From Chlorobiota bacterium (GTDB lineage Bacteria; Bacteroidota; Bacteroidia; Bacteroidales; F082): a stretch of 46,081 nucleotides of DNA. Position 1 is the stretch's first letter, and every line of letters begins with the position of its first letter. This document shows, piece by piece, positions 11,272 to 33,128 of this stretch. The notes under the pieces were generated by a model. The model worked only from the letters and a program-made list of their open reading frames with translations. It did not search any database and was not told where the DNA came from. The DNA lies in contig JAADID010000175.1 of assembly GCA_013151505.1 (NCBI GenBank), positions 1-46,081 of the forward strand, given 5' to 3'. The position numbers were made by a program, and so were the translations under genes.

Positions 11272-11856
11272 TTATTCAATCCAGTTATTTTTAAGTGCAT
11301 AAGCGATCAGTTCGGCGCTGGAGCCCAGTTTGTATTTGTGCAGGATATTTTTCCGGTGGGTCTGAACGGTTTCAAAAGAAATACCCAGTTTTTGAGCGAT
11401 TTCATGACTTTTTAACCCGTCGGCAATACAGCGGATGATCTGTAATTCCCTTTCGGTCGGCATGATATGATTCATTTCATGGCTTCTGCTGGTTAAAAGA
11501 ATTCTTTTTACAGTTACTATCAGTTGTTCTTCGGTAAACGGTTTTGTCAGGTAAGAATCGGGAATGGTTTCAAAAGCTTTTTGAATGACATCGTCGTTGC
11601 TGTAAGCCGAAACATAAATCACTTTTGTCTTCCCTTTCAACAATTTTAAATTTTTGACGAAATCTATTCCCGAACCGCCTTTTCCCAGGTTGATATCACA
11701 CAAAATCAAGTCAATCCCATGTTCGTCATATAAATCAAACGCGCTTTCAATTGAACTTGCAATTCCGATAACTTCAAAGTTATTCTTTTCAAGTATCTGT
11801 TGAATATCCCATGCAACAATCGCATCATCTTCAATAATCAGAATTTTTTTCTTCAT
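11272..11856 (-). CDS. LuxR/NarL-family response regulator
   Basis: REC domain ('ILIIEDD', 'LILCDINL') plus a C-terminal LuxR HTH ('TERELQIIRCIADGLKSHEIAQKLGISFETVQTHRKNI'). Confidence 0.9.
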   Translation of the reverse strand: MKKKILIIEDDAIVAWDIQQILEKNNFEVIGIASSIESAFDLYDEHGIDLILCDINLGKGGSGIDFVKNLKLLKGKTKVIYVSAYSNDDVIQKAFETIPDSYLTKPFTEEQLIVTVKRILLTSRSHEMNHIMPTERELQIIRCIADGLKSHEIAQKLGISFETVQTHRKNILHKYKLGSSAELIAYALKNNWIE

Positions 11857-11869
11857 AATAATTTAAAAT

Positions 11870-13358: not shown

Positions 13359-13904
13359 ATGAAGAACCCTGTTTTAGAAATCCTGTTTATATTCTTTTTA
13401 ATCCCTGTGATGACCATAGCCCAATCCTCTGATTTTTATGATTACTCGGTGACTGACATTGATGGGAACCCGTTTTCATTCGATCAGTTGAAAGGAAAAA
13501 AAGTGATGATCGTCAATGTGGCATCAAAATGCGGCAACACCCCACAGTACGAACAATTAGAAGCTGTTTATGAAAAATATAAAGACAAGGGGTTTATCAT
13601 CATCGGATTTCCTGCTAACAATTTTATGCATCAGGAACCGGGCACAAATCAGGAGATCAAGGAATTTTGCACCCTGAATTACGGGGTTACATTCCCCATG
13701 ATGGCCAAAATATCAGTTAAAGGAAAAGACATGGCGCCTGTTTACAAGTGGCTTACACAAAAAAGTCTTAACGGGAAAAAAGACTCAAAGGTAAAATGGA
13801 ATTTCCAGAAATACCTGATCAGCGCCGACGGAAAACTGGAGAAAGTGATCAGCCCGAAAGTCAAGCCCGATGACCCGGTGATCATCCAATGGATCGAGAA
13901 CTGA
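13359..13904 (+). CDS. gpx: glutathione peroxidase (Cys-type), secreted
   Basis: 'VNVASKCGNTPQY', 'GFPANNF' and 'KWNFQKYLI' are GPx signature motifs. An N-terminal signal peptide is present. Confidence 0.9.
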   Translation: MKNPVLEILFIFFLIPVMTIAQSSDFYDYSVTDIDGNPFSFDQLKGKKVMIVNVASKCGNTPQYEQLEAVYEKYKDKGFIIIGFPANNFMHQEPGTNQEIKEFCTLNYGVTFPMMAKISVKGKDMAPVYKWLTQKSLNGKKDSKVKWNFQKYLISADGKLEKVISPKVKPDDPVIIQWIEN

Positions 13905-17926: not shown

Positions 17927-19180
17927 CTATTTCAGAAAAATCATACGTCGTACTTTTCGGGAATCTTTCAGTTTAAGCTCATAAAAGTATATCCCGTTTC
18001 CGACCGGCTGCCCGTCATCACTGTTTCCATCCCAAAACAGGGCGCGTCCGTTGTCAGTATAATTTCCTTTTTTCAATAAGCCCGGATTGAACGTACGGAC
18101 AATCGTTCCTTTTAAGTTGTATATTTTGATTGTTACCTCTTCATCAACTGCCAAAATAAACGGAATCCAGGTGCCTTCCCTGAAAGGGTTCGGATAATTT
18201 TGCAATAGGTCACTGCTGACCGGCAGATTTTCATTCGGGTCATCCAGTCCGCCGGCTTTGGCGCTGAAAACATCTATCGAACCGTTATTCATTGAAGTTA
18301 TCCAGATTCGGTTACGTGAATCTATGGCAATATCCATCGGGGCGCTCAACTGTCCCGGCTCTGTTCCGAATTCACCGAACTTTGTAATAAAGCTGCCGTT
18401 TTCATCAAATATATTCACCGTTCCCAGCAGGTTATCAAGCACATAAACCCTGCCCCGGTTGTCAACAGCCAGCCCCTGGATTCTTGTGAGCTGTCCGTCT
18501 TCAAAACCGAATTCTCCGAAAGTATTCAGTAAATTGCCTTTTGTATCAAAGACGAGAACCTTTGCCGTAATCCCGTTTTCAGTTGCATCAAGCCCTGAAA
18601 CCGTGCCGCCGTGCTCGGCAACAAGTATCCTGGCGTTTTTTCTGTCGTAAGCTATGCCGGTTGGATAAGCCATAACATCGCTGCCAAATGTTCTGATAAC
18701 ATTTCCCGACAAATCCATGACGATAACCTGCTTTTGTTTGCTATCTACAACATAGAGTTTATTGTCGCCGTCAAACACGGCATCGGACGGATAAGTACAG
18801 TTTGTGTAAATTTCACTATCGCCTCCGTTGAAGTCAAACTTTTTGATGGCCCCAACCTTATTATCACTTACCACAAGCTGTTTATCATCATTTACGGCGA
18901 GGGCAAGCGGAAAGCCGCCGGAGTTCACTGTGCCGAGAAACTGTCCGGAAGTATCAAATTTAACAATCTCTTTCCTGAAAGCATCGGTTACATAAACAAC
19001 ACCGTCATCATCCAGTGCTATGCGTACCGGCGATTTCAGGCCTTCTGATATTCTGAACAAGAATCCGTTATTTCCGGCTGTTTGCTGGGCAAACAAATCG
19101 GGAGTGGATACCCATATTATCAGGAGCCAGCAAACAGCGGGAAAGAAATAACTGATGGAAAACGTAAATATCTTTTTCAT
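17927..19180 (-). CDS. NHL-repeat beta-propeller protein with T9SS-type C-terminal sorting domain
   Basis: NHL-like blades ('PTGIAYD..ILVAE', 'IQGLAVDNRGRVYVLDNLLGTVNIFDENG', 'PMDIAIDSRNRIWITS'). The C-terminal 91 aa ('QNYPNPF...IKIYNLKG...WDGNSDDGQPVGNGIYFYEL...MIFLK') match the Por_Secre_tail/FlgD-Ig pattern. The ORF track starts at a TTG (19189); the ATG at 19180 ('MKKIFTF') is the more likely start. Confidence 0.85.
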   Translation of the reverse strand: MKKIFTFSISYFFPAVCWLLIIWVSTPDLFAQQTAGNNGFLFRISEGLKSPVRIALDDDGVVYVTDAFRKEIVKFDTSGQFLGTVNSGGFPLALAVNDDKQLVVSDNKVGAIKKFDFNGGDSEIYTNCTYPSDAVFDGDNKLYVVDSKQKQVIVMDLSGNVIRTFGSDVMAYPTGIAYDRKNARILVAEHGGTVSGLDATENGITAKVLVFDTKGNLLNTFGEFGFEDGQLTRIQGLAVDNRGRVYVLDNLLGTVNIFDENGSFITKFGEFGTEPGQLSAPMDIAIDSRNRIWITSMNNGSIDVFSAKAGGLDDPNENLPVSSDLLQNYPNPFREGTWIPFILAVDEEVTIKIYNLKGTIVRTFNPGLLKKGNYTDNGRALFWDGNSDDGQPVGNGIYFYELKLKDSRKVRRMIFLK

Positions 19181-19217
19181 AGGCCTCAATTTTTGTGATC
19201 GAAATATGACCAGACGA

Positions 19218-19877
19218 TTATTTATTATGGCACGTCAGACATAAAGCGCTTCCTGCATTTGATATTCGGAGTGAGAGGGAAATAGTCTGTCCCGTAGCCA
19301 CATTGTGACATCCGGAACACCCCTGCGTATTTCTGCTGATGTGCGGATCGTGGCACGAAGTGCACTGCAAATACCCTGACTGGAGGAGATCCTCGGCAAT
19401 AGTACCGCCCAACCCTGAGGGAGTAGTAGCCGGGTCATATAACCCACCATCCGTAGCAGCCAGCGCCGAACTGTACTCAAATGAAATCGGATGATCATCA
19501 CGCAGGTCTGGTGTGATGTTTCCCCAGGTAACATACCAGGTGCCACCTGTGAAACCGCCGTGATTTTCAATGGCAACAGTTCCATCGTGACAGGAAAGGC
19601 ACAACTTTGAAAAGCCATTGGGCTGTCCGGGCGTGGCATCAAGTGTGTTGCTTGTGTAAACCTGAAAAGTTGCCGATGTAACCTCGTGATTCCATAAAGG
19701 CGAATCGTTAACTTCCATGTTTGCGTTGTGAGGCGTGTGGCATGGCCGGCAGGCCTCACCGCCACTCCACGAAGCGCCCGTAAAATCGTGGTGACTATTC
19801 AATAAACCCTGGCCGAAAGAAATGAAATATAAAAAGATCAGTAGTGAAGTAAAAATAGATCTCATAGTGGTTTTCAT
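19218..19877 (-). CDS. small pentahaem c-type cytochrome (paralog family B)
   Basis: 219 aa with a signal peptide. It has 5 CXXCH motifs (CRPCH, CLSCH, CTSCH, CSGCH, CLTCH). It is collinear with the 20113..20763 and 26260..26880 products. Confidence 0.9.
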   Translation of the reverse strand: MKTTMRSIFTSLLIFLYFISFGQGLLNSHHDFTGASWSGGEACRPCHTPHNANMEVNDSPLWNHEVTSATFQVYTSNTLDATPGQPNGFSKLCLSCHDGTVAIENHGGFTGGTWYVTWGNITPDLRDDHPISFEYSSALAATDGGLYDPATTPSGLGGTIAEDLLQSGYLQCTSCHDPHISRNTQGCSGCHNVATGQTISLSLRISNAGSALCLTCHNK

Positions 19878-19952
19878 TTGACTCTAATTTATTTGGTTTG
19901 AAATAAAAAATCTGCTTCAAAAACAAGTGGTTTTTTACGTAAAATCAGTGGA

Positions 19953-19967
19953 GCAAAAATCACGCCA
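19953..19967 (-). promoter_or_regulatory. candidate sigma-54 promoter TGGCGT-N5-TTGC
   Basis: The minus strand reads TGGCGTGATTTTTGC with exact GG-N10-GC spacing. It lies 76 nt upstream of the ATG at 19877. Confidence 0.5.
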
Positions 19968-20112: not shown

Positions 20113-20763
20113 CTATATGTTGTGACAGGTTAGACACAGTGCGCTGCCTTCATTGGACTTTCTTAGAAAGTAAGAAACAGTAGCGCCACGTCCATTCGTT
20201 TCATAATGTCTTTCGGGATTTCCCGAACCCGCAATATTGTGTACATCATGGCATGATGTACATTCCAATCTGCCGTTATCCAGCAAATCTTCTTCAATCG
20301 TACCACCCAAACCGGACATCGTAACGCTTGGATCGCGCAACTTTTTATCTTTCATTGCCAGGCTCGCATCATAGACAAAAGAGACCGGGTGACTATCTCT
20401 TATATAAATCCGGGGAGAATTATTTCCTTCGGGCGCCATAACAATGTGGTTGGAAGGAGCCACTGTTTCATCATGACACGAAAGACATTGCTTTGTTTTG
20501 CCGGAAGGAAGATTCGGATAACTTTTGACTGTACTTCTGGAATATAGCTGAAAAGTCGTAGCAGTATCATGTTGGTTCCAGTTAAGTGAAGAAGGTGGAC
20601 TCATATTGTCAGACTGGGTTATATGGCACGGTCTGCACGGATTATTACTGCTCCAGGAATTCCCTTTGAAAGAATGGTGTCCGAGTGGAAATTCCTGACC
20701 CATAATAGTTGATATAGGGTTAATTAACAACATAACCGCTATATACGCCAAGAATTTAGACAT
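20113..20763 (-). CDS. small tetrahaem c-type cytochrome (paralog family C)
   Basis: 216 aa with a signal peptide. It has 4 CXXCH motifs (CRPCH, CLSCH, CTSCH, CLTCH). It is the most diverged of the three paralogs. Confidence 0.9.
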   Translation of the reverse strand: MSKFLAYIAVMLLINPISTIMGQEFPLGHHSFKGNSWSSNNPCRPCHITQSDNMSPPSSLNWNQHDTATTFQLYSRSTVKSYPNLPSGKTKQCLSCHDETVAPSNHIVMAPEGNNSPRIYIRDSHPVSFVYDASLAMKDKKLRDPSVTMSGLGGTIEEDLLDNGRLECTSCHDVHNIAGSGNPERHYETNGRGATVSYFLRKSNEGSALCLTCHNI

Positions 20764-21218: not shown

Positions 21219-22523
21219 TTAATTTCTTTTATACTCTCTTCTGGCATGGCACCCGGTCAGGCAGGAACCTCCGTTTTGAGTGACCTGATATTTTATCGGC
21301 ATTTCCCAGTTTCCAAAGGCTACACTACCTGCTATAAGATGTTCATATTGCGATCCGTGCATTTTATGGCAATCCTTGCAACTTCGCCCTTTATTTCCAT
21401 GAATATGGGCATAATGCAGGTTTTGATCCCCGTTTCTGAAACCGGTAGCGGATTTTGTTGTCTTTTTTTCGATTAAATCCGTGTCGTGACAAGTAAAACA
21501 CAATGCAAAGGTGTCGGGTTGTGCAGGGGCATAAAATCCGACAGGAAAAGCGTCCTGTAACAACGAAGGGAAAACGGAGGCATGTGGAAAATGACATCCT
21601 GAACAACCGACAAGCTCAATAGCGCCATGAATGACTTTGCTTTTGCTCAATATCTGTTTCATGTTGCTTATCTTTTTCGTCTCTGTTTTAATTGTCCGGT
21701 TATGGCAACTCAAACATAACTCCTGATTTTCTTTCAGAAGAAAATACTCCTGCGGCGAGGCATGAGGTGAATGGCAATTCACACAGGTTTCTTTAATTTT
21801 AACTGCACCATGGACAACGGGTTTACTGTCAACAGATTCTTTCACATCATCATGGCAGTCAAAGCAAAGGGCGGAAATCGTCTGATCAAGCAAATACTTA
21901 TCTCTTGAGCCATGTACCTGATGACAATTCCTGCAATCGTCTTCAAACGGCGGGTGCAGGTTTTTTGTCTTCATAAGTTTACCGACATCCTCGTGACATG
22001 AAAAACACAGATCGGGCATGGCGGATTTGAGCAAAGACCGGTATTTTGACTGATGCGGGTTATGGCAGGACTGACAATTTCCTTCACTTACAGGCTGGTG
22101 TCCGTTATCATGTTTCGCTATTTCCTCGTCGTGACATTCAAAACACAGAGAGGCAACCGGGTTAGCCAGTAGCAAATGTGGGTTCGCGCTACTGTGGGGG
22201 GAGTGGCACATCAGGCATTCACCGCCCTCAACCGGTGCATGGATATACTTTTTGGTGTTCTCATCATGACACATATAGCATAAAGCCGGCAATTCATCGG
22301 CCATTTTAAAAGCTTTTCCTTCCTCGCCCGGATGGGGCTTGCCGGTTGGTTCGTGGCAGTAATCACACGATTCTTCGGCAGGCGGGTGGACATTCTTGCC
22401 AGCCATCAGGTCTCCATGGCAGTCAAGGCAGGTTTTTTCCGGCTCGTCGTTTTGTCCCATGCCTTCGATGCCAAAAACAAGCAGTAAAGAAAAGATAAAG
22501 ATCATCCAAAAGTATTTCCTCAT
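21219..22523 (-). CDS. 14-haem (+1 CX3CH) c-type cytochrome built of seven tandem di-haem modules
   Basis: 434 aa with a signal peptide. 14 CXXCH motifs alternate as xCxxCHxPH and LCxxCH(D/E). A C-terminal CLTGCH is present. The start is 1 nt after the barrel gene stop. Confidence 0.9.
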   Translation of the reverse strand: MRKYFWMIFIFSLLLVFGIEGMGQNDEPEKTCLDCHGDLMAGKNVHPPAEESCDYCHEPTGKPHPGEEGKAFKMADELPALCYMCHDENTKKYIHAPVEGGECLMCHSPHSSANPHLLLANPVASLCFECHDEEIAKHDNGHQPVSEGNCQSCHNPHQSKYRSLLKSAMPDLCFSCHEDVGKLMKTKNLHPPFEDDCRNCHQVHGSRDKYLLDQTISALCFDCHDDVKESVDSKPVVHGAVKIKETCVNCHSPHASPQEYFLLKENQELCLSCHNRTIKTETKKISNMKQILSKSKVIHGAIELVGCSGCHFPHASVFPSLLQDAFPVGFYAPAQPDTFALCFTCHDTDLIEKKTTKSATGFRNGDQNLHYAHIHGNKGRSCKDCHKMHGSQYEHLIAGSVAFGNWEMPIKYQVTQNGGSCLTGCHARREYKRN

Positions 22524-22524
22524 T

Positions 22525-24501
22525 TTACCGCGATTTAAATTTCCTGATAACAGTTACATAGGCTCCATTGAAATTAAGGATTTCCCTGTTTAAATAGTTT
22601 CGCCGATAAACTTCAAGACCGAGCGTAATATACAATTTTCTGACAACCATGTTTAATTCCGTTTTGGCAATAAGATAGTTCAGTCCGATCTCGTAACCGT
22701 TTTGTTCCCTGTAACTTAATTCCAGGTTGAGCTTAATATTTCTGGTGAAACTGTATGCTATTCTCGCTGACACATCTCCATAGGTTTCATCTCTCCGGTC
22801 GGCAATTGTTATATAATATCTGAGATTACCTACGAGCGAAATCAATAGTTTCTGTTTAAAGCGCCAAAGCATGTTCCCGTTCAACCTGATTAACTGATAG
22901 GGAATGATCGTACTCTCGTAATCATCATATTCGATGCCAAAACGTGCAAACCCGACTTTGAACTTTATACCGTAAAGGTTTTGGTAAAAGTAATTTAACA
23001 CCAGTAAATCGGATGATTCCACAAAACTATAGTCTTGTTTAGCCCATCTGTAGTACACCTCAATAAACTGATCAAAAAACGTTAAACTGGCCGTAGCTGA
23101 CTGGCTTATCATATTAAACTTATAAGAACCGGGGAGCATGGCCGTATAATCCACCAGAACCGTTGCATTGTCCGGTATTTTTCCTCCGGGTATCCGTTTG
23201 ATCTCGATGTAATTATTCTGTTCAAACAACAGATAATCCAGGTCCAGATCGTAGATAACAGTACCTGTTACATCTTTTACAACGACAGACCCGATATCTG
23301 CATACGGTTGGTCGAGAAGAGTGATTTGATCATCGGACAGCACATGTTCTTCGTTAGTTACAAAAAACGGCACAGGTTCGCTTACCCTGTCAAAATAGCG
23401 ATCCAGGAAAGAATAAGAAAGATTTAAATTTCCTTTAGGTATTTTCTTGGTGTACCTGATCTCGAATGCAGTCCGCAGATCATCTTCGCTGTATATTGTG
23501 TGCTTGTTGCTGGTGTATTCCGCATAAATATTGGTTTTCAGGCTTTTGAACAGTTGATGGTTCAAATCTACCCTTCCCCTGTGCTGATTAAGCTGGTATA
23601 TCGGATTGGTGTATTGATAAAAATTATATGAACTTACCAACCTGAAATTTTTGGGTAACCTGAAGGTCATGCTACTCATCACCTGGAACCTGTTGAAATT
23701 GTCATACCCAGTTTGGTAGAAATTCGATATGAAAGTCAGCAGGTTATAGCGTCTCATCCTGTCAAACGGGATGCTGCTGTTCAGTTCAATATTGTGTATT
23801 TTATTCTCTCTTGGCTCGGGCAGGTAATATTCTGCATGAATGTAATCATCAAAACTGTAACTAAGCCTGTTGTCATCCTGAGTAAAAAAGGTTTTCGAAA
23901 CTTTAGCTTTGATGCTGCGTTGCCAGTACTTATAAACCTGATTTGTTTCTACTTCTTCCTGATCCCATTTCCCTTCCTCATACGTCACGGAAGCAGGAAG
24001 CACCCTGTTTTTGTAATAAATACCTCCTCCAAAAAATCTCCGGCTCATACGGGAATTGGTAAAGTTCTCCCGGTTTACGTAGCTTTGGCCCATATTGACA
24101 AAAGCATTCACAGTCAGCTTTTTTTCACGAAAGAATGTCGTTCTGAGGTTCAGCCTGCTCAGTGTTCTTGCATCGGAACGGTCGGGGATGCTTGAGTATT
24201 GGTCATTAAGTTTTTCAGGGTTAAATTCACCTTCAAAATCAATTTCCATCAGATTGGGGTTAACGATAAAACTTTTCGATTTCAAAAGAAATCTGCCCGA
24301 AAACAGTGTCCCGTTGATTATTTCCTCGAAGCCGGAGCCTAAAATGCGCTGCTGGTACCGGTAACGTCCTTTTACCCCCACTTCACCCGACAACAACTCC
24401 TGATTCCAGAAATGGTATATCCCTGCGCCGTTTTGCCCGAAACATTCAACGGAAACAAGCAACAACAAACCTACTAACCTTCTGAATCTCAAATCTCTCA
24501 T
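22525..24501 (-). CDS. putative outer-membrane beta-barrel (porin-like) protein
   Basis: 658 aa with a signal peptide ('LLLLVSVECFGQ'). The sequence is Tyr/Phe/Asn/Arg-rich with alternating hydrophobicity throughout, no Cys-rich or cofactor motif, and an aromatic-rich C-terminus. It is tightly packed between two cytochrome genes. Confidence 0.6.
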   Translation of the reverse strand: MRDLRFRRLVGLLLLVSVECFGQNGAGIYHFWNQELLSGEVGVKGRYRYQQRILGSGFEEIINGTLFSGRFLLKSKSFIVNPNLMEIDFEGEFNPEKLNDQYSSIPDRSDARTLSRLNLRTTFFREKKLTVNAFVNMGQSYVNRENFTNSRMSRRFFGGGIYYKNRVLPASVTYEEGKWDQEEVETNQVYKYWQRSIKAKVSKTFFTQDDNRLSYSFDDYIHAEYYLPEPRENKIHNIELNSSIPFDRMRRYNLLTFISNFYQTGYDNFNRFQVMSSMTFRLPKNFRLVSSYNFYQYTNPIYQLNQHRGRVDLNHQLFKSLKTNIYAEYTSNKHTIYSEDDLRTAFEIRYTKKIPKGNLNLSYSFLDRYFDRVSEPVPFFVTNEEHVLSDDQITLLDQPYADIGSVVVKDVTGTVIYDLDLDYLLFEQNNYIEIKRIPGGKIPDNATVLVDYTAMLPGSYKFNMISQSATASLTFFDQFIEVYYRWAKQDYSFVESSDLLVLNYFYQNLYGIKFKVGFARFGIEYDDYESTIIPYQLIRLNGNMLWRFKQKLLISLVGNLRYYITIADRRDETYGDVSARIAYSFTRNIKLNLELSYREQNGYEIGLNYLIAKTELNMVVRKLYITLGLEVYRRNYLNREILNFNGAYVTVIRKFKSR

Positions 24502-24508
24502 TATCCTT

Positions 24509-25078
24509 TCAGTTCAAAATAAACCTGTCCTCACCGCCATGCGGGTTATGACATTCCGTACAATCGGCATCTTCGATATCGGAATGTGCCTCATTTTTAA
24601 ATACATCTTTGGAAAGGTGGCAATTCAGGCACAAATTCTGCCCTGTCCTGATAAGTAAAAATTTGTTTTTACTCATGTGCGGATTATGGCATTGCGTACA
24701 AAAGCCTGCATCAACAGGCCCGTGTAACACTTGATACTGGTCCCCGAAACTTTCGTGGCATTGATAGCAAAGCCCCGGTAAGGGCTCAAGCAATTTTCCC
24801 ATTTGTCCCTGGTTGTGGCAGTTGGCACATTCTTTTTCCTGATAAGGTGGATGAAATATATATTCGGACTTTACCACACGGATAGTCTTAGTTTCCTTAC
24901 TGCCAGCCATTCTGATGGAATCAGCCCGTGCAATACTGTCTGCTTTATATGGATTCGGTACCCCGTCAAAAAAAAAGGAAAGCGTTTTATAATGTGTCTT
25001 TGGTGAGCATGAAATCATCAATGCGAAAGCAAAAGCAAGCAAGATAACTTTTATGTGTAGATCCCTGCGCATCGGCAT
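24509..25078 (-). CDS. pentahaem c-type cytochrome lipoprotein
   Basis: 189 aa with a lipobox-like 'LMISCS' and an 'FFFDGVPNP' motif. It has 5 CXXCH motifs of the same di-haem module type as the 14-haem protein. Confidence 0.9.
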   Translation of the reverse strand: MPMRRDLHIKVILLAFAFALMISCSPKTHYKTLSFFFDGVPNPYKADSIARADSIRMAGSKETKTIRVVKSEYIFHPPYQEKECANCHNQGQMGKLLEPLPGLCYQCHESFGDQYQVLHGPVDAGFCTQCHNPHMSKNKFLLIRTGQNLCLNCHLSKDVFKNEAHSDIEDADCTECHNPHGGEDRFILN

Positions 25079-25087
25079 CCCCGCTTA

Positions 25088-26158
25088 TCATTTGGGCTCT
25101 ACATAACCATATACATTCACTTTATCAGGACCATACTGGTTGGTAACGAATATCAGGTATTTGAGTCGGAAACTATCGTCAACATAGTTTTCAAAGTATT
25201 TTAAATTGTCATAGTCAATAACCACCTTTGCTGGCAACCACATACCACCCGGACCTTTGTAGGGACCTCCGAAAAACATCAACAGATTCCCATCTTTATC
25301 GAATATCTGAATATTCTCAAATCCTGCATCCACAACGTACAGGTGTCCATCTCTGTCAACAGCGATACCTTTGGGACGAACAAACTGACCGATGCTTTTC
25401 CCGTAACTACCCACAGACCTTACGAACTCGCCGTCATGGGTATAAACTTTTATCCTGAAATCCCCAAAATCAGTAACATATACATATTTATCGGTAACAT
25501 AGATGTTGGATGGTGAAAACAGGAAATCTTTATCCCCCGGCTCTGCATCGGGAATGCGTTTTAACAGTTTGTAATCATCTTTGTTGTACACATCAATACT
25601 ATGGCTTGTGAAATTGGCAACCCATATTTTATTATCCTTCACAAAAACGTCGGTGGGTTTTGCATTTTCAGCCTCTCCAAAACTTGCCAGATAACTTCCG
25701 TCACTGTTAAAAACGACAATCTGTCTGCGTTTGGGATCAGCAACATAGAGTTTATTGTCATCATCCAGGAAACAATTAACGGGTTTTTTCAGTTGTCCCA
25801 TGCCTTCCGGGGAAAAGTAATTAAAGTTATGTTTTTCAAGATTAATGACCTCCAGCGCATCCATTTGTGTGTCACAAATATAAATTTTACCGTCGCGTAT
25901 GGCCAGGCCATAAGGTTTTACTATACCCATGTCGGGCAACTCGCCAAACAGGAATCGTGCAAATCCCGATCGTTTTCCCGTTATATCAAGTGAGCTACTG
26001 ATTTTCGTCAGGTACTGTATCCTTGTTGTGTCGGGCGGTGAGGGATAAATGATGATGTTTTCAGATGATATATTTTTATGTATCTTCCGCGAACATGATA
26101 TCGAAAGCATTAAAAACAAACTACTTATCAGGATAACATAAAGCTTTATGCCTTTCAT
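25088..26158 (-). CDS. NHL-repeat beta-propeller lipoprotein
   Basis: 356 aa with lipobox 'LSISCS'. Canonical NHL blades are present ('GQFVRPKGIAVDRDGHLYVVDAGFENIQIFDKDGNLLMFFG'). Confidence 0.85.
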   Translation of the reverse strand: MKGIKLYVILISSLFLMLSISCSRKIHKNISSENIIIYPSPPDTTRIQYLTKISSSLDITGKRSGFARFLFGELPDMGIVKPYGLAIRDGKIYICDTQMDALEVINLEKHNFNYFSPEGMGQLKKPVNCFLDDDNKLYVADPKRRQIVVFNSDGSYLASFGEAENAKPTDVFVKDNKIWVANFTSHSIDVYNKDDYKLLKRIPDAEPGDKDFLFSPSNIYVTDKYVYVTDFGDFRIKVYTHDGEFVRSVGSYGKSIGQFVRPKGIAVDRDGHLYVVDAGFENIQIFDKDGNLLMFFGGPYKGPGGMWLPAKVVIDYDNLKYFENYVDDSFRLKYLIFVTNQYGPDKVNVYGYVEPK

Positions 26159-26206
26159 AAATATAGCCCTTAAATTTTTGGATAAATATACTAAAATGCT
26201 AAGAAT

Positions 26207-26236
26207 AAAAAAGGTGATTTCTCAATCACCTTTTTT
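26207..26236 (-). terminator. rho-independent terminator after the tetrahaem gene 26260..26880
   Basis: The aaggtgat / atcacctt 8-bp perfect stem has a 6-nt loop. It is flanked by A- and T-runs, giving T-rich tails on both strands. Confidence 0.6.
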
Positions 26237-26259
26237 AAACTCATATTTTTCAAATAATG

Positions 26260-26880
26260 TTATTTGTTGTGGCAGGTCAGGCATAATGCGCTGGCTGCAT
26301 TACTTTTGACAAGCAATTTAGCCACACCTGATCCGTTGTGTACATCATGGCAGGAAGCACACTCCAATTTCGTACCGAATAACATATCAGCATCTATGGT
26401 GCCGCCCAGACCGGAGTTTGTTGTCGTCGGGTCATACAATCCACCGTCGGTGCTTGCAAGGGTAGCATCATAAACAAACGATATCGGATGGTCATCACTC
26501 AAATCCGTACCAAGAAGTTCGTCACCGGAAATGAATGTAGTTCCATTGGTTTTTCCGCCGAAATTGTCAAGTGCAACGGTTCCGTCGTGACAACTCAGAC
26601 ACAATTTCGAAATCCCGTCAGGTTGCCCTACTGTAGCATCCAGTGTGGAGGATGAATAAACAGTATACGTCGCGGTAGATAACTGGTGGTTCCACAAAGG
26701 GGCATCAGTTACGCTAATATCAGCGTGGTGCGGTGTATGGCAAACAATGCAGATTTCGCCCGATGGGTTCCAGGTTTCGCTCGAAAAATCATGAGCAGAA
26801 CCGGAAATGTTCTGTCCCAAAGTAACCTGGGCCAAAAAAAGGATAAATAATCCTGCAAAAAGTTTAATCAGTGTTTTCAT
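26260..26880 (-). CDS. small tetrahaem c-type cytochrome (paralog family A)
   Basis: 206 aa with a signal peptide. It has 4 CXXCH motifs (CIVCH, CLSCH, CASCH, CLTCH). It appears monocistronic, lying between a sigma-54 promoter candidate and a terminator. Confidence 0.9.
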   Translation of the reverse strand: MKTLIKLFAGLFILFLAQVTLGQNISGSAHDFSSETWNPSGEICIVCHTPHHADISVTDAPLWNHQLSTATYTVYSSSTLDATVGQPDGISKLCLSCHDGTVALDNFGGKTNGTTFISGDELLGTDLSDDHPISFVYDATLASTDGGLYDPTTTNSGLGGTIDADMLFGTKLECASCHDVHNGSGVAKLLVKSNAASALCLTCHNK

Positions 26881-26950: not shown

Positions 26951-26967
26951 TTGCAAAGTTCGTGCCT
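26951..26967 (-). promoter_or_regulatory. candidate sigma-54 promoter aGGCACG-N4-TTGCAA
   Basis: The minus strand reads AGGCACGAACTTTGCAA with exact GG-N10-GC spacing. It is a near-perfect match to TGGCACG-N4-TTGCW and lies about 73 nt upstream of the ATG at 26880. Confidence 0.6.
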
Positions 26968-27278: not shown

Positions 27279-27315
27279 GGGGCATTTCACCCAGGTGGCG
27301 TGGGGCATTTCACCC
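27279..27315. repeat. 14-bp direct repeat GGGGCATTTCACCC x2 (23-bp periodicity)
   Basis: Perfect copies at 27279..27292 and 27302..27315, immediately downstream of the sigma-54 activator stop codon (27325). Confidence 0.75.
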
Positions 27316-27324
27316 TATCCCGCA

Positions 27325-28704
27325 TTACAAACCGTATTTCTTTTTTTTATACCGCAGCGCATCCCTTGAAATACCTAACATTTTCGAGGCTTTGGTTTGA
27401 TTATACTCACTTTTCTGAAGAGCTTGCAGAATTAATTGTTTTTCCAGGGTTTCCAGTGAAATGCCTTCTTCGGGAATATCAAACTGATATGGGTTTCCGG
27501 TTTCAGGCGCCTGACCGGTAACCAAAGCTGTATTAATCTCACACGGCAGGTTATCCGGTCGGATTTTATCATTATTTTCAAGAATAATGGCGCGTTCCAT
27601 TACATTGCGCAATTCCCTTATATTACCCGGCCATTTATAATGAGACATCAGTTCCAGGGCATTACGCTCAACACCCTTTATTTTTTTGTTAAACTGACTG
27701 TTGAACAGCTCTATGAAATAGTCTATCAACAAGGGGATATCTTCTTTGTGTTCCCGAAGCGGAGGAATATCAATCTGAAATACCTTCAGACGATAATATA
27801 GATCCTCCCTGAAAGTTTTTTGCTCGATGGAGTTTATAAGGTCTTTGTTCGTGGCGGCAATAATGCGAATATCCACGGGAATTTCTGAAGTGCTTCCCAG
27901 ACGCTTTATTGTTCTGTTCTCAAGCACACTCAATAGTTTTACCTGTGTAGCGAGGTTTATTTCACCGATTTCATCAAGGAAAACCGTACCCCCTTCAGCT
28001 ATTTCAAAAAGTCCCTTTTTCATTTTGGCTGCATCCGTAAAGGCTCCTTTTTCATGCCCGAAAAGTTCACTTTCAAGCAGGGTATCGGGAAAAGTAGAAC
28101 AATTAATGGTCACAAAGGGATTTTCTTTTCGACTACTTTCGTTGTGGATTGCGCGCGCAAACAAATCTTTCCCTGTTCCGCTTTCGCCCAAAAGCAAAAT
28201 GGTGGTCGTTTCGGAACGGGCAATTTTTTTGGAAATCTGGACAATTTGTTTGAAGACCGGTGACTCGCCGATAATATTGTCGAAGGTAATTTTCTCCCGT
28301 TGCTGCCGCCTCAGCAACTTGATCTCGGTATTGATGTTGATGTTGTTTTTAATGTTTTCGATGAGCAGGTTAACTTCATCAAACGAAAACGGTTTGTTAA
28401 TGTATTCGTTTGCGCCGTTTTTCATCGCCGTCACAGCGGTATCAATTGAGCCATAGGCGGTCATAAAAACAATGATGGCATCCTCGTCTATGGATTTGAT
28501 TTTTGTAATCACTTCAAGTCCCTGAATGCCGGGCAGACGGTTGTCAACAAAAACAATGTCAGGATAATATTTCTCAAACAATTCGATTCCTTCCTCGCCT
28601 GTTTCCGCCAGGTAAACCCTGTAGCCTTTTACATTTAAATGTTTCTCGAACGACCACCGGATGAGTTTTTCATCGTCAATGACCAGGATTTTCAATAACT
28701 TCAT
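27325..28704 (-). CDS. sigma-54-dependent response regulator (NtrC family)
   Basis: REC domain ('ILVIDDE', 'IVFVDNRLPG'), an AAA+ domain with Walker A 'GESGTGKD' and a 'GAFTDA' loop, then a C-terminal Fis-type HTH ('NQTKASKMLGISRDALRYKKKKYGL'). Confidence 0.95.
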   Translation of the reverse strand: MKLLKILVIDDEKLIRWSFEKHLNVKGYRVYLAETGEEGIELFEKYYPDIVFVDNRLPGIQGLEVITKIKSIDEDAIIVFMTAYGSIDTAVTAMKNGANEYINKPFSFDEVNLLIENIKNNININTEIKLLRRQQREKITFDNIIGESPVFKQIVQISKKIARSETTTILLLGESGTGKDLFARAIHNESSRKENPFVTINCSTFPDTLLESELFGHEKGAFTDAAKMKKGLFEIAEGGTVFLDEIGEINLATQVKLLSVLENRTIKRLGSTSEIPVDIRIIAATNKDLINSIEQKTFREDLYYRLKVFQIDIPPLREHKEDIPLLIDYFIELFNSQFNKKIKGVERNALELMSHYKWPGNIRELRNVMERAIILENNDKIRPDNLPCEINTALVTGQAPETGNPYQFDIPEEGISLETLEKQLILQALQKSEYNQTKASKMLGISRDALRYKKKKYGL

Positions 28705-28738: not shown

Positions 28739-30190
28739 TTATCCTGTTGGTAAAATTACATAGAATCTGGTCCCTTTTGATTCTTCACTTTCAACCCGGA
28801 TTCTGCCTTTGTGTTTTTCCACAATTTCCTTGGAAATAGCGAGGCCCAGTCCTGTTCCTTCTGTGTGTGTAGTATAAAACGGGTTAAATATATTCTCTAA
28901 AACGTCCTTTGGTATCCCCGTGCCTGTGTCCTCAACGATAATCGTCACCTTCTTGTTTTCCGGGTCGTAAGCTGTTTTAAAAGTAATAACTCCTTTTTGC
29001 GGTATGGCCCGAATGGCATTCAGACCCAGGTTGTGCAAAACGTTCTCTATTTTCTCATTATCGAACGGAAATAAGGGTATGTCTTCCTGTAATTCTTGTC
29101 TGAATTCAATTTTTTTGTTCCGGGTCTGGTTTCTGATAAAAAAGATCAGCGTCCTTATTACGTCGTTTATGTTGTTCATTTCCGGGTTGATGCCGCTGGG
29201 GCGTGAAAATCTCAACATGTTTGTAATGGCATTGTTCACCCGCTCTGCCTGCCGACGGATTTCTTCAAGTATTGGTTTGTTTTCATCTTCCGGTACTTGT
29301 CTGACCAGTATTTCGGCAGCATTGGCAATACCGGTCAGGGGATTTCTGATTTCATGTGCCAGTCTTGAGGCCATCTCGCCGATGGTGGCCATTTTCCTCT
29401 TGTCGTCCAGTTCTTTTTGATGATAAATCTGAAGCTGCTGCTGTGTTTTCTGAAAAGTGTCAACCATTTCGTTAAAGCTCTTTCCAAGCTCAGCAAGTTC
29501 CCTGGATTTTGGGATGGCAATTCGTTCGTTCAGGTTTCCTTTATTTATCCGGTTGATTGTATTGTGAAAACTGTTCAGAGACCTTCTGACTAAGCGGTAA
29601 TGCACCAGAAAGGCAGAAGCCAATACAAGAAAAACGATCATAGCCGAATACCCTAAACTAAAATTCCGCATTAAGGCAATATGCTGGTTTGTCCTTTCCA
29701 AAGTTATATCAAACACAAGCATGCCCAGATATTTTTTGGAAGAGTGGTGGCATTGATAACATTCCGGTGAGTTCCGAAAGCGGATATAAGCCCATAACCC
29801 GGGTTCATTACCATCCTTATAGGACTGTATGTAAGTATCTTCCGGTAATTCGGATATTTTTTTAAACCCTAAAATTTCTCTTGAAAGCGAGTCAGGTCCT
29901 GACAGATAGACGAGGCTGTCATTCGAATTGAATAAGTATAAGCGGTAAAAATATTTGTTTTTTTTAAAACTATCCAGCAACGGATGCAATGCCTTGCCGC
30001 CAACCTGCGAAATTGTTTGCAGGAACTGGGCATGCATTATGCTTAAGCTGCTGTAAATGTCCTCTTCTGCATGTTTGTACATCTCTCTCGACATGTAGCT
30101 GTTAAATAAGAAAAGCGCAAAAAACGACATGGTACTGACCACCAGGAAAATGGTAATACTAATGATCAGTCTGAATGAATACCGCTTCAT
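28739..30190 (-). CDS. sensor histidine kinase with CXXCH-containing periplasmic domain, HAMP, HisKA and HATPase_c
   Basis: 483 aa with two TM helices (aa about 8-30 and about 176-197) flanking a loop that carries 'SPECYQCHH' (nt 29747..29761). H-box 'RLAHEIRNPLTGI' and G-box 'DTGTGI...GTGLGLAI'. Confidence 0.9.
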   Translation of the reverse strand: MKRYSFRLIISITIFLVVSTMSFFALFLFNSYMSREMYKHAEEDIYSSLSIMHAQFLQTISQVGGKALHPLLDSFKKNKYFYRLYLFNSNDSLVYLSGPDSLSREILGFKKISELPEDTYIQSYKDGNEPGLWAYIRFRNSPECYQCHHSSKKYLGMLVFDITLERTNQHIALMRNFSLGYSAMIVFLVLASAFLVHYRLVRRSLNSFHNTINRINKGNLNERIAIPKSRELAELGKSFNEMVDTFQKTQQQLQIYHQKELDDKRKMATIGEMASRLAHEIRNPLTGIANAAEILVRQVPEDENKPILEEIRRQAERVNNAITNMLRFSRPSGINPEMNNINDVIRTLIFFIRNQTRNKKIEFRQELQEDIPLFPFDNEKIENVLHNLGLNAIRAIPQKGVITFKTAYDPENKKVTIIVEDTGTGIPKDVLENIFNPFYTTHTEGTGLGLAISKEIVEKHKGRIRVESEESKGTRFYVILPTG

Positions 30191-30205: not shown

Positions 30206-31891
30206 TCAGTATGATTTTCTCCTGTGATTTTTTCCATGGCATTTCAGGGTACACCTGCCTTTATAAGAGCCTAAATCCTCAAAATACAGTTGGCCCATGT
30301 TATTGGGGTGAACAATACCTATATCAAAATTTATCAAATGGGTATTGTTAGTGGTATTCCCCTGTGTACTGCTTATGCCGTGCGGATCATGGCAGGCATT
30401 GCAGGGTGCATCTTCCTCCGTAATATGTTTTTTGTGAACTTTCTCCTGAAAGTTGTTACCCCCACCGATGATCTCATTCCGGTCATGGCACTGATAACAC
30501 AGTTCATAAGCTGAATAGGATTCCGGGGTATAATCCGCCGTCGTATAATTGAACTTCAGTATCTGCGGATAAATTGATCCGTGGGGCCCTGCAGGCGAAC
30601 CGGTTCCGTCGCTGGCGTGGCAATCGGTGCAATAGATCAAACTGCTCTCGGTAAGAGGAGGAATCAGGCTGGGAACATCGGGGTTGGTTCCCGGTCCGGC
30701 GATGGGGTGAAAAGACGGGTTGCCCACGTCGAACTCAAGTCTGACATTGTTCTGTTCGATTTGTCTTGACGTCGGGCTGGCCGGTTTATCGGGGCTATCA
30801 GCATGACATCTGAAACATATTTCGTACTCATATTGCACCGGATCCACATCTCCTCCTGAAAGGTTAATGCCTTTCACACCTTTGTTAAATCCACGGACAT
30901 AAGGAGCATTGGCGCTTGTATTGTTTACTGCATGAGGGTTGTGACAGTCTTCGCACTCAACATGCTTGGTCAAAACCAGCGCTCCCTCCGAAGCATCATG
31001 AATTAGATTATAAGCATAGACATCATGGATATACGCTTTGGTCAATTGAAGCTGAATGTCAGTTGATGCCACATTTCCATTATGGCAATACAGACAATTG
31101 TTCTCCTCAGCCTGATAATTCAACAGTCGTTCGTTAAGTCCGGCATTATGCGGATTATGACAATTCTCGCAGCCATTTTCAGCTACCGTGGTGTAAGGCG
31201 TATGGAACCAGGGATCATTACCCGATCCGTTCCAGGTTGCAGTAGAGTTTCGGTGACTTGATGATATCCAGTAATTCTTGTCGTGACATTGTGTGCACAG
31301 ATTAGAATATTGGGTGGTGATCACAAGAAAATCGGTGTAAATATTTTTATGCGGATCATGGCAGGCCGTACATTGCAATTTATCATTCTCGAGGACAATG
31401 GGCCAGGAGATATTGACAGGATCCACCAATTCGCCGTCGGCAGCAGCCAGGGCAGAATTGTAAACAAACGAAACCGGATGGTCATCAGTCAGGTCGGTTG
31501 TCAGGTTGGTATTTCCGGCAGGCATGACAGTGATACCCCCGCTGAAATCAATTGGCACAGGGCGGCTTAAAACACTTCCCAGCGCTATTGTTCCATCGTG
31601 ACACGAAAGACAAAGTATGGATGAACCGTCGGGCTGACCAATAACTGCCTGCGTGGTTGTGCTGTTATACAACGAATAATTCAAACCCGGATCCTCCCGG
31701 TTCCATAATGGTCCCTTCGGAGCGCTGTTGTGAGGCGTATGACAAAAAATGCATATTTCCGTTTCACTCACTGCTTTGATCTGACCCGGCCCGCTGACCG
31801 ATAAATTGTGAACCGTATTCACAATCGACTGCGAAAACAACCACGCCGGGATCAAAAACAACAGTATTAATTTAATCCTTATCATTATCAT
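30206..31891 (-). CDS. 11-haem (+1 CX3CH) c-type cytochrome; N-terminal approx. 200 aa homologous to the small tetrahaem paralogs
   Basis: 561 aa with a signal peptide. It has 11 CXXCH motifs plus a C-terminal CTLKCH. The first four haem motifs and the 'DDHPVSFVY' box are collinear with the 206-219-aa cytochromes. The gene overlaps the upstream NHL gene by 20 nt. Confidence 0.9.
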   Translation of the reverse strand: MIMIRIKLILLFLIPAWLFSQSIVNTVHNLSVSGPGQIKAVSETEICIFCHTPHNSAPKGPLWNREDPGLNYSLYNSTTTQAVIGQPDGSSILCLSCHDGTIALGSVLSRPVPIDFSGGITVMPAGNTNLTTDLTDDHPVSFVYNSALAAADGELVDPVNISWPIVLENDKLQCTACHDPHKNIYTDFLVITTQYSNLCTQCHDKNYWISSSHRNSTATWNGSGNDPWFHTPYTTVAENGCENCHNPHNAGLNERLLNYQAEENNCLYCHNGNVASTDIQLQLTKAYIHDVYAYNLIHDASEGALVLTKHVECEDCHNPHAVNNTSANAPYVRGFNKGVKGINLSGGDVDPVQYEYEICFRCHADSPDKPASPTSRQIEQNNVRLEFDVGNPSFHPIAGPGTNPDVPSLIPPLTESSLIYCTDCHASDGTGSPAGPHGSIYPQILKFNYTTADYTPESYSAYELCYQCHDRNEIIGGGNNFQEKVHKKHITEEDAPCNACHDPHGISSTQGNTTNNTHLINFDIGIVHPNNMGQLYFEDLGSYKGRCTLKCHGKNHRRKSY

Positions 31892-32960
31892 TTAAACGTC
31901 CGTTAATAAGTTGAAAAACCTGAATGCGCGAATTATAACTATCTGCAACATAAATAAAATCGTTGTCATCAATGAATATCCCCGTAGGCAGCCAGAATTT
32001 ACCGTCTTTTCTACCCTGCCCGCCAAAATAATACAGGAAGTTACCGTTCTTGTCAAAAATTTGCACGGCATGAAATAAAGCATCAACAATATAAATGTTT
32101 CCAAACGAATCGGTTGCGATTCCTTTAGGCCGTGAAAAATAACCCGTAGCATCACCTATCTCTCCAAACATGCTTATAAACTCCCCCTCGCTGTTCAGTA
32201 TCTGTACCCTGAAGTTCATTGCATCAACTATGTAAACAAGTCCTGATTTGTCAATCCAGAGGAAAGTGGGGAAATTAAATTCAAGCGGGCCGTCGCCTCT
32301 TTTGCCGATATGCCGGATCACCTTGCCCTGTAAATCCAAAACCGTGATCCTGTGCAGGGCGGTTTCCACTACCCAAACTTCATTTTTTAAAGAGGAAAAA
32401 GCAATCCCTGTCGGTTGGTCTAATTTCACCGCAGGACAAAATTCAAGTAATTTGTCTGCACTTTCATCCTTATTCAATTTAAATACTTTATTAAGCCTTG
32501 ATTCGGTAAAAAGCAGGTCGCCCTGCGGCAAAGCACAAATGCCCACCAGTGAAGTATAGTGTTGATGAAACGACTGGGGGATTTCACCCACCCCATCCTG
32601 TACTTTCAACAAACTACCCAGTCCCTGGTCAAGTACCCAGAATGAATCCGGGTTTTCGGCAAAAACGGAAATAGGCTTGCTTAAAACTATTGCCTCCTTC
32701 TTGCCAAAAAAGAACTCTGCTATCCGGTCAACCAGATTAACCTCTACCTTACTTTTCTCCGTTGGGAACTTGGTTACCAGACGTAAACGATTGATCTCAA
32801 CCCCTTTTTGATCATAAATCCCTTCCGTTTCCTGTGCCCTCACCGGTAGAAGAAAAACAAGGTACAAAAGACAAAAAACAACCGCCTTTAAGGATAGTTT
32901 ACGAAAAGAATAAATACTCAAACCGTTCATTTGCTCCATAAAATGGATTTTAAAACTCAT
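31872..32960 (-). CDS. NHL-repeat beta-propeller protein (secreted)
   Basis: 362 aa with a signal peptide. NHL blades are present ('GYFSRPKGIATDSFGNIYIVDALFHAVQIFDKNGNFLYYFG', 'PTGIFIDDNDFIYVADSYNSRIQVFQL'). Confidence 0.85.
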   Translation of the reverse strand: MSFKIHFMEQMNGLSIYSFRKLSLKAVVFCLLYLVFLLPVRAQETEGIYDQKGVEINRLRLVTKFPTEKSKVEVNLVDRIAEFFFGKKEAIVLSKPISVFAENPDSFWVLDQGLGSLLKVQDGVGEIPQSFHQHYTSLVGICALPQGDLLFTESRLNKVFKLNKDESADKLLEFCPAVKLDQPTGIAFSSLKNEVWVVETALHRITVLDLQGKVIRHIGKRGDGPLEFNFPTFLWIDKSGLVYIVDAMNFRVQILNSEGEFISMFGEIGDATGYFSRPKGIATDSFGNIYIVDALFHAVQIFDKNGNFLYYFGGQGRKDGKFWLPTGIFIDDNDFIYVADSYNSRIQVFQLINGRLNDNDKD

Positions 32961-33128
32961 TACCTGAATCCAGGCTATACAAGATACTTCAATTTTATTG
33001 CCAAATATAAGTTATTACCGATAAAATTGACAATAATACGATAAAAGCATTCCCAATTACCCTGTCTGTTATACGGTATAATTGTATTGCAGGTTCTGCC
33101 TTCAGGTACAAAAGAATAATTTTTAAAG

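Follow-up and report, generated by a model that had tools for sequence, protein, structure and literature searches.

A conserved sensor kinase with a predicted periplasmic haem-c Cache domain beside a multihaem cytochrome island in Bacteroidia

Several bacterial signalling proteins carry a periplasmic Cache domain with haem c, and the signals and regulons of these sensors are largely unknown: the Geobacter examples, GSU0582 and GSU0935, feed chemotaxis, while the Pseudomonas example feeds a Ser/Thr kinase. A 2026 preprint joins GSU0582/0935 with the DUF3365/Tll0287 proteins in a family named sCache_heme, which is assigned to the Cache and not to the PAS fold, whose CXXCH motif is conserved at 99%, and whose architectures include histidine kinases (Deshpande et al.; PMC12889525). 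In GSU0935, the haem iron has His144 as proximal ligand and, in the reduced state, Met60 from the N-terminal helices as distal ligand; water replaces Met60 in the oxidised high-spin form, and nitric oxide (NO) or carbon monoxide (CO) displaces it in both GSU0582 and GSU0935 (PMC8396549). Tll0287 of Thermosynechococcus (PDB 5B82) also holds a c-type haem in a PAS/Cache-like fold, but is a stand-alone protein with Cys/His ligation. Here, a sensor histidine kinase with a predicted domain of this type is described from a 46,081-nucleotide (nt) stretch of DNA, contig JAADID010000175.1 of the Chlorobiota bacterium assembly GCA_013151505.1 (order Bacteroidales in GTDB), which is referred to below as the window and whose features are collected in Table 1. 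The type of sensor domain is already described, and its novelty is modest. What is new is a conserved circuit that ties this sensor type to a Bacteroidia cytochrome island, with predicted cis-elements and, in the subclade of the window protein, an atypical haem pocket.

A first-pass annotation of the window had singled out the kinase for a CXXCH motif lying within 'SPECYQCHH', between two predicted transmembrane (TM) helices. The minus strand from nt 29761 to 29747 indeed reads TGT TAT CAA TGC CAC, i.e., C144-Y-Q-C-H148, and the two cysteines of the motif are the only ones in the whole kinase. Kyte-Doolittle hydropathy finds exactly two hydrophobic segments, with basic residues at the cytoplasmic side of each (K2, R3, and R7 before TM1, 'HYRLVRRS' after TM2), and Pfam matches above cut-offs follow for HAMP (residues 199-245), HisKA (271-331), and HATPase_c (377-482). 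The order is thus TM1, periplasmic domain, TM2, HAMP, HisKA, and HATPase_c. Two TM segments, their basic flanks and the HAMP domain after TM2 together put residues 31-177 outside the cytoplasm, and the loop bearing the CXXCH is hence predicted to face the periplasm, as had been proposed.

The motif is conserved throughout the homologues. A full-length search returned thousands of kinases, and the best 119 full-length matches (43-88% identity, about 100% query coverage, with all named members coming from Bacteroidales or Bacteroidota metagenome-assembled genomes, MAGs) form the homologue set. The nearest relative of the kinase is from an uncultured Lentimicrobiaceae MAG (88% identity), followed by other Bacteroidia MAGs. 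All 119 proteins contain exactly one CXXCH, at the same alignment position and with 29 different XX pairs; the sole exception among the 120 matches listed is an N-terminally truncated fragment. Within the periplasmic domain, C144, C147, H148, and G156 are the only invariant residues, D161, N140, and R133 being nearly so. Word-indexed searches for homologues gave zero matches, whether the query was the sensor domain by itself or its alignment, and a scan of GTDB with the single kinase protein recovered three true orthologue loci only, the rest being matches to the kinase core. With the periplasmic domain as sole query, an exhaustive HMMER search gave 26 cluster representatives only, and the CXXCH is kept in each of the 24 distant ones whose sequence spans the site. 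Conservation among orthologues, a point on which the first-pass annotation had left its proposal to depend, is thus complete in the homologue set and, judging from these alignments, the CXXCH is under selection, beyond chance.

Such a motif might also act as a periplasmic thiol/disulfide switch, or as a Cu/Zn site, in an otherwise ordinary ligand-binding Cache domain: CXXC motifs can be redox-active disulfides, the predicted fold is also like that of the metal-sensing CusS sensor domain, and the window protein taken alone lies below the Pfam thresholds for haem sensors. However, the His that follows the second Cys is equally invariant (119/119), while a disulfide switch needs no such His, and each residue of the motif has its aligned counterpart in the CQSCH of GSU0935, to which haem is bound in the crystal structure. 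In addition, the organism matures many c-type cytochromes, with seven multihaem genes in the window and a CcsBA-type gene in a related locus. This explanation is consequently held to be very improbable; a covalent haem c on the periplasmic domain, attached via C144 and C147 and with H148 as proximal ligand, is predicted instead, with high confidence.

Comparisons of profiles and of fold lead to the Geobacter sensors. Profile A1, made from 51 non-redundant sensor domains of the kinase family, matches PDB entry 3B42, the periplasmic sensor domain of GSU0935, with a HMMER E of 5.9e-5, and the alignment keeps the pattern N-x3-C-x2-C-H-x5-LG, CXXCH on CXXCH; GSU0582 (3B47) and Tll0287 (5B82, E 1.8) are matched weakly. 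Comparison of A1 with the aligned segment of 3B42 by hhalign gave a probability of 90.5% and an E of 1.4e-6 over 94 columns. When scanned singly, 40 of the 51 members match PF21563, the GSU0582/0935-type model (best E 2e-6), as against weak matches of 17/51 to the Tll0287-like PF11845 (best E 8.7e-4) and sub-threshold matches of 7/51 to dCache_1. Two distant relatives that were retrieved with the window domain, P0139 and P0146, exceed the PF21563 cut-off. An AlphaFold2 model of the sensor domain built on A1 (predicted local distance difference test, pLDDT, 86; predicted template modelling score, pTM, 0.80) consists, in order, of helix 2-33, helix 35-45, five strands, and helix 135-147 leading into TM2. 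The CXXCH forms a short helix (domain residues 112-114) between strands 101-109 and 124-133, i.e., it is inserted between strands 4 and 5 by the count of the model, or between beta3 and beta4 in the numbering of PMC12889525. In a Foldseek comparison of the model with the PDB, 3B42 ranked first, followed by the sensor domains of WalK, CusS, KinD, CitA, and DcuS (sCache/PDC), and Tll0287 (5B82) was not among the top 50 fold matches.

Because the A1 profile, hhalign, and Foldseek all point to 3B42, the sensor domain is best assigned, from profiles and model, to a single-Cache, divergent member of sCache_heme that is closer to the GSU0935-type PF21563 than to PF11845/Tll0287. The kinship with the Geobacter haem sensors advanced in the first-pass annotation is thereby upheld. 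Its parallel comparison with DUF3365/Tll0287 survives in part, in that sCache_heme unites these families (PMC12889525), but not for the window protein itself, whose direct membership in PF11845/Tll0287 was dropped for lack of a PF11845 match and for the profile E of 1.8 to 5B82. A dCache_1 assignment was dropped as well, its matches being sub-threshold only and the domain being single-module in the AlphaFold2 model.

The resemblance to GSU0935 and GSU0582, the best sequence-profile and fold matches, extends to the arrangement of the protein, with a domain set between two TM helices and followed by HAMP, a Cache/PDC-type fold, one CXXCH that separates the final two core strands, with the LG-strand next, and no axial Cys. 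The proximal His even has almost the same residue number (144 in GSU0935, 148 in the window kinase). In contrast, identity to the window domain is about 15-18%, and the Geobacter proteins have a chemoreceptor output whereas in the window protein the output is a histidine kinase, with a sigma-54 regulator as its partner. With sCache_heme as a whole, the window domain shares the extracytoplasmic Cache fold, the inserted and strictly conserved CXXCH and the fusion to HAMP and histidine kinase modules, and with the signalling-type members of that family the lack of a Cys axial ligand (PMC12889525). The text of PMC12889525, as far as it was searched, makes no mention of Bacteroidota or of a link to multihaem cytochrome operons. 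The Cache_heme-HAMP NO receptor of P. azotoformans differs in that it signals through a Ser/Thr kinase and has no intrinsic histidine kinase (10.64898/2026.05.25.727664).

The likely haem environment was compared with that of GSU0935 on the basis of alignment alone. No conserved Met occupies the counterpart of Met60 in the Bacteroidia family alignment. Among the residues of the N-terminal helices that could act as ligand, His63 alone is frequent; it is present in 76% of the family and separated from the proximal His148 by 85 residues (vs. 84 for the corresponding spacing in GSU0935). The window protein has neither residue: His63 is lost, being replaced by V, I, Y, F, N, E or D, in this protein and its eight closest relatives, all of which share a His69 that is absent from every His63-containing sequence. 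Since loss and gain fall within a single clade, they count as one event and not as independent covariation. Arg133 is likewise replaced, by Trp in the window protein and P0002 and by Leu in P0003 (residues 63, 69, and 133 lie at about 29791-30003 of the window). The haem pocket thus appears to be remodelled in the window subclade and, with both His63 and R133 lost, the coordination chemistry, and hence the signal, may differ there. The family alignment contains no additional conserved Cys in the sensor domain, which excludes Tll0287-type Cys/His ligation and likens the family to the signalling-type haem sensors with His/water or His/Met ligands (PMC12889525; PMC8396549). The sixth coordination position is accordingly predicted to be labile or open.

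The kinase gene belongs to a minus-strand island of about 17 kb, from 32960 to 15577, that encodes seven multihaem cytochromes with about 60 haem motifs in total, and three NHL propellers. It is preceded by genes for an NHL propeller and a cytochrome of 561 amino acids (aa) and followed by the regulator gene, and the spacings of -20, 15, and 34 nt between these four genes fit a single operon, in line with the co-transcription proposed in the first-pass annotation. The cytochrome had been described there as a 12-haem protein; 11 of the sites are CXXCH motifs and the twelfth is a non-canonical CX3CH (CTLKCH), so that 12 haems are plausible. The regulator does have the composition of a sigma-54 activator (receiver, AAA+ domain with a GESGTGK Walker A, and HTH_8, all above Pfam cut-offs). 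The signalling parts are intact in both proteins, with an H-box and HATPase domain in the kinase, and a receiver, Walker A, and HTH_8 in the regulator, and the pair is thus comparable to an NtrB/NtrC-type system, with GAFTDA as a variant contact loop. A gap of 444 nt separates this sensor operon from the predicted target operon, whose five genes are spaced by 101, 9, 7, and 1 nt.

This arrangement recurs in the related loci. The order NHL, multihaem cytochrome, kinase, regulator, gap, tetrahaem cytochrome (cyt4), NHL, pentahaem cytochrome (cyt5), protein of about 650 aa, and multihaem cytochrome is identical in every related locus long enough to be compared (L001-L007, L084, L085, and L087); nine related loci span both operons. 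Kinase identity is 43-65% in L001-L004, L084, and L085, and the order is kept in L087 though its sensor domain is just 27% identical. Two truncated contigs still preserve the adjacency of cytochrome and kinase, and the regulator is the conserved partner of the kinase in all loci that extend that far. The sensor and target operons are also related in content: the N-terminal 205 aa of the 561-aa cytochrome are 39% identical to the 206-aa tetrahaem cytochrome (BLASTP, E 4e-41), so that the two are paralogous. Two further cytochromes of the island, of 216 aa (20113-20763) and 219 aa (19218-19877), have the CxxCH spacing of the tetrahaem cytochrome, and in one related locus a CcsBA-type gene adjoins the island. 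A more distant relative, encoded at L088 (the contig of P0145), has two CXXCH in its sensor region and is a HisKA_3 kinase with a LuxR-type regulator; its gene adjoins an operon for a multihaem cytochrome and a Ni_hydr_CYTB-type cytochrome b, and it is, going by the sequence, an independent case of a predicted haem-c sensor beside cytochrome genes.

The closest analogue described for the island is found in Desulfovibrio ferrophilus IS5, whose clusters DFE_448-451/DFE_461-465 have multihaem cytochromes interleaved with NHL propellers and were proposed to form an outer-envelope conduit (PMC5815863). The likeness is one of description; the D. ferrophilus clusters belong to another phylum, and no haem-c sensor kinase or sigma-54 regulator was found described for them. 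By analogy, the target operon resembles an outer-envelope electron-transfer apparatus. Its 658-aa product has a signal peptide, zero haem motifs and a family consensus ending in ...RKF, and its gene always separates the pentahaem lipoprotein gene from that of the large multihaem cytochrome. Searches of Pfam, NCBIfam, and the PDB found no match to this protein, a profile of seven homologues retrieved nothing in the PDB and nothing meaningful in NCBIfam, and a single-sequence AlphaFold2 model reached a pLDDT of 29; it may be an outer-membrane component of the conduit. Porin-multihaem clusters of unknown type have been noted in Lentimicrobium MAGs as well (PMC13013709).

Two conserved DNA elements lie between the regulator gene and the target operon. 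The first, AGGCACgaactTTGCA, is one mismatch away from the sigma-54 consensus used here (TGGCAC-N5-TTGC, with the -24 GG and the -12 GC 10 nt apart), and its counterparts in the other loci read TGGCAY/TGGCGT/TGGTAT-N5-TTG-N, 39-71 nt before the ATG. In an alignment of the ten intergenic regions, the GG and TTG of this -24/-12 block are the only invariant stretch, the C and the A being conserved at 90%. Since the overall frequency of the loosened motif is 7.8e-5 per nt, its recurring position before cyt4 is not due to chance. The second element, GGGTGAAATGCCCC, is a pair of palindromes placed directly after the stop codon of the regulator gene, with copies 23 nt apart in the window. The palindrome, GGG-NN-AWWT-NN-CCC, is paired at the same position and with a spacing of 22-23 nt in 9/10 loci (besides the window, in L001, L002, L004-L007, L084, and L085). 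Related loci totalling 225 kb hold 31 copies of it vs. 2 copies in 1.05 Mb of unrelated loci, an enrichment of about 70-fold per nt. The pair, which in the window is about 320-345 bp away from the promoter element, provides strong candidates for upstream activator sites bound by the regulator.

The NHL gene of the sensor operon contains an extra copy of the palindrome (32576-32589), which is found at the same site in L001, L002, L004-L007, L084, and L089. It encodes V-G-E-I-P/T, with near-identical codons (GTG GGT GAA ATC/ATA CCC/ACC) despite the high divergence of the proteins. L003 encodes GEIP by other codons and also lacks the intergenic pair; this suggests that the site serves in both coding and regulation. 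Another sigma-54-like element, TGGCGTgatttTTGCT, is present at 19952-19967 (minus strand), 75 nt upstream of the gene for the 219-aa cytochrome, and another copy of the palindrome lies within that gene (19432-19445). The regulon may thus reach this operon and include the 219-aa cytochrome, an NHL protein with a type IX secretion tail, and a 17-haem cytochrome. The NHL propeller in question (17927-19189, minus strand) carries FlgD_ig and Por_Secre_tail domains, the latter being a type IX secretion C-terminal sorting domain that implies surface display, and it adjoins a cytochrome of 774 aa with 17 CXXCH. Upstream of the sensor operon, TGGCAAtaaaaTTGAA (32988-33003) is conserved among close relatives only. 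TAnnTTTG is the -7 box of the Bacteroidetes primary sigma factor, and TGGCAAtaaaaTTGAA could equally be such a box or a sigma-54-type element.

These elements bear on whether the kinase controls its neighbours at all. The cluster could reflect co-inheritance, with the targets of the regulator lying elsewhere in the genome, given that the -12 element is non-canonical in most loci and that the palindromes are assigned to the regulator by position alone. Against this, gene order is kept across a range of about 27-88% identity, the -24/-12-like block is the only invariant intergenic feature, and the palindrome is strongly enriched and adjoins the regulator gene; L003, moreover, encodes the same peptide yet has neither the intragenic copy nor the tandem pair. 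Mere co-inheritance is therefore judged improbable, and the regulatory link between kinase and island that the first-pass annotation had suggested gains support from the conserved synteny, the -24/-12 element, and the locus-specific tandem palindrome.

In the model considered probable here, the kinase reports the redox or ligand state of its haem and activates sigma-54-dependent transcription of the cytochrome/NHL operon next to it. The trigger would be an event at the haem iron, either reduction or oxidation with a switch in spin or distal ligand, or attachment of a small ligand to a labile sixth site, that alters the packing of the N-terminal helices on the sheet. The resulting movement would be passed on through TM2 and HAMP to the HisKA/HATPase core, which would determine how far the neighbouring NtrC-type regulator is phosphorylated. 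The latter, in turn, would bind the tandem palindromes that closely follow its gene and activate the sigma-54 promoter ahead of the operon for the tetrahaem cytochrome, the NHL protein, the pentahaem cytochrome, the 658-aa protein, and the multihaem cytochrome.

The most likely signal is the redox poise of the periplasmic cytochrome pool, in that the genes of the regulon are reminiscent of the D. ferrophilus cytochrome/NHL clusters (PMC5815863). The same architecture and regulon would also suit a sensor of NO or another diatomic gas bound at a labile sixth position, in which case the island would be induced by NO or nitrosative stress, or by N-oxide respiration. The P. azotoformans protein, the only characterised signalling-coupled sCache_heme receptor, releases NO slowly and forms no stable oxy complex (PMC12889525; 10.64898/2026.05.25.727664), GSU0582 and GSU0935 bind NO and CO by displacing Met60 (PMC8396549), and the loss of the probable distal His63 suggests an open or weakly ligated distal site in the window protein. 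Nonetheless, no gene for NO detoxification or N-oxide reduction was recognised in the island or the window, multihaem cytochromes, NHL proteins, and an envelope protein resemble extracellular electron-transfer clusters (PMC5815863) and not nitrosative-stress regulons, and most family members do have a candidate distal His. Gas sensing is thus regarded as possible, if rather unlikely. A more speculative variant of redox sensing, which we hold to be doubtful, is a 'cytochrome-wired' system, in which the NHL propeller and the 11/12-haem cytochrome would act as a co-sensor exchanging electrons with the haem of the kinase. The NHL/cytochrome pair always precedes the kinase and, in this reading, is paralogous to the first components of the conduit.

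Several observations weigh against control of the cytochrome operon by a redox-responsive haem sensor. Regarding the sensor, the window domain alone scores 16.7 bits on PF21563, below the gathering score of 27, and finds no match in a scan with PF11845. The template modelling scores (TM-scores) to 3B42 are low, 0.44-0.49, which is attributed to domain swapping in the dimeric crystal forms of the Geobacter domains (PMC8396549) but is weak all the same. A conserved distal ligand is lacking, the window protein having Val63 in place of the likely distal His63 of the family, and it has a Trp at position 133, where 97% of the family has Arg. The only biochemically characterised signalling-type member binds NO tightly, which favours a gas sensor (PMC12889525). 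Regarding the output, the sigma-54 contact loop of the regulator reads GAFTDA and not GAFTGA (residue 220) in 10/10 loci, and the final C of the -12 element is not conserved, TTG-N replacing TTGC beyond the close relatives of the window. Matches to the strict sigma-54 consensus are not enriched over the window as a whole (26 vs. 22 expected from shuffles), and the promoter argument hence rests on positional conservation. Finally, one locus, L003, is without the palindromes. The GAFTDA loop co-occurs with promoters that have TTG-N instead of TTGC at -12.

Table 1. Features of the sensor and target operons in the window (positions are those of the 46,081-nt stretch)
Feature	Position	Strand	Basis and remarks
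Sensor histidine kinase gene, 483 aa	28739..30190	-	Open reading frame list, Pfam, hydropathy
TM1, signal-anchor helix, about aa 8-30	30101..30169	-	Kyte-Doolittle window >1.6; K2/R3/R7 ahead
Periplasmic sensor domain, aa 31-177 (147 aa)	29660..30100	-	AlphaFold2, Foldseek, profile match to 3B42, PF21563 in relatives
CXXCH, predicted haem-c attachment motif (C144, C147, proximal ligand H148)	29747..29761	-	Sequence, conservation, alignment to GSU0935 CQSCH
TM2, about aa 178-198	29597..29659	-	Hydropathy; HYRLVRRS and HAMP behind
H279 codon, predicted phospho-accepting histidine, H-box 'AHEIRNPL'	29354..29356	-	Sequence within HisKA match 271-331
NHL-repeat beta-propeller, first gene of sensor operon	31872..32960	-	Pfam NHL/DUF5128; position conserved in related loci
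Multihaem cytochrome, 561 aa, 11 CXXCH and 1 CX3CH (CTLKCH)	30206..31891	-	Directly upstream of kinase
Response regulator: receiver, sigma-54 AAA+ (GAFTDA loop), HTH_8	27325..28704	-	Pfam, NCBIfam AtoC/NtrC-like
Predicted target operon	21219..26880	-	Haem-motif counts, spacings, Pfam, gene order in related loci
Tetrahaem cytochrome, 206 aa, heads target operon	26260-26880	-	
NHL lipoprotein, target operon	25088-26158	-	
Pentahaem lipoprotein, target operon	24509-25078	-	
658-aa protein, conserved, no family match, target operon	22525-24501	-	
14/15-haem cytochrome, target operon	21219-22523	-	
Sigma-54-type -24/-12 element AGGCACgaactTTGCA	26952..26967	-	71 nt upstream of tetrahaem cytochrome start codon
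Tandem 14-bp palindromes GGGTGAAATGCCCC	27279-27292 and 27302-27315	.	Predicted upstream activator sites of sigma-54 regulator

Outside the island, the window contains an AbiEii-type nucleotidyltransferase toxin gene (2567-3391) that overlaps an upstream 268-aa open reading frame without family match; the two (1764-3391, plus strand) probably make up a toxin-antitoxin system of type IV. At 11272-13135 (minus strand), a two-component pair that is unrelated to the first consists of a HisKA_2/HWE-type kinase and a LuxR-type regulator, and is adjoined by a divergent glutathione peroxidase gene (13359-13904, plus strand).

Members of Bacteroidia groups such as the Lentimicrobiaceae have been seen repeatedly in electroactive and methanogenic consortia, and the locus described here gives a first handle on how their large and little understood multihaem cytochrome/NHL islands are controlled. 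The circuit is fully specified, from sensor and sigma-54 regulator to predicted sites, promoter, and cytochrome operon, and its input-output relation is hence testable. Were the 'wired' variant true, the kinase would read the load of extracellular electron transfer directly and tune the conduit in a feedback loop, to which the palindrome within the NHL coding sequence would add autoregulation.

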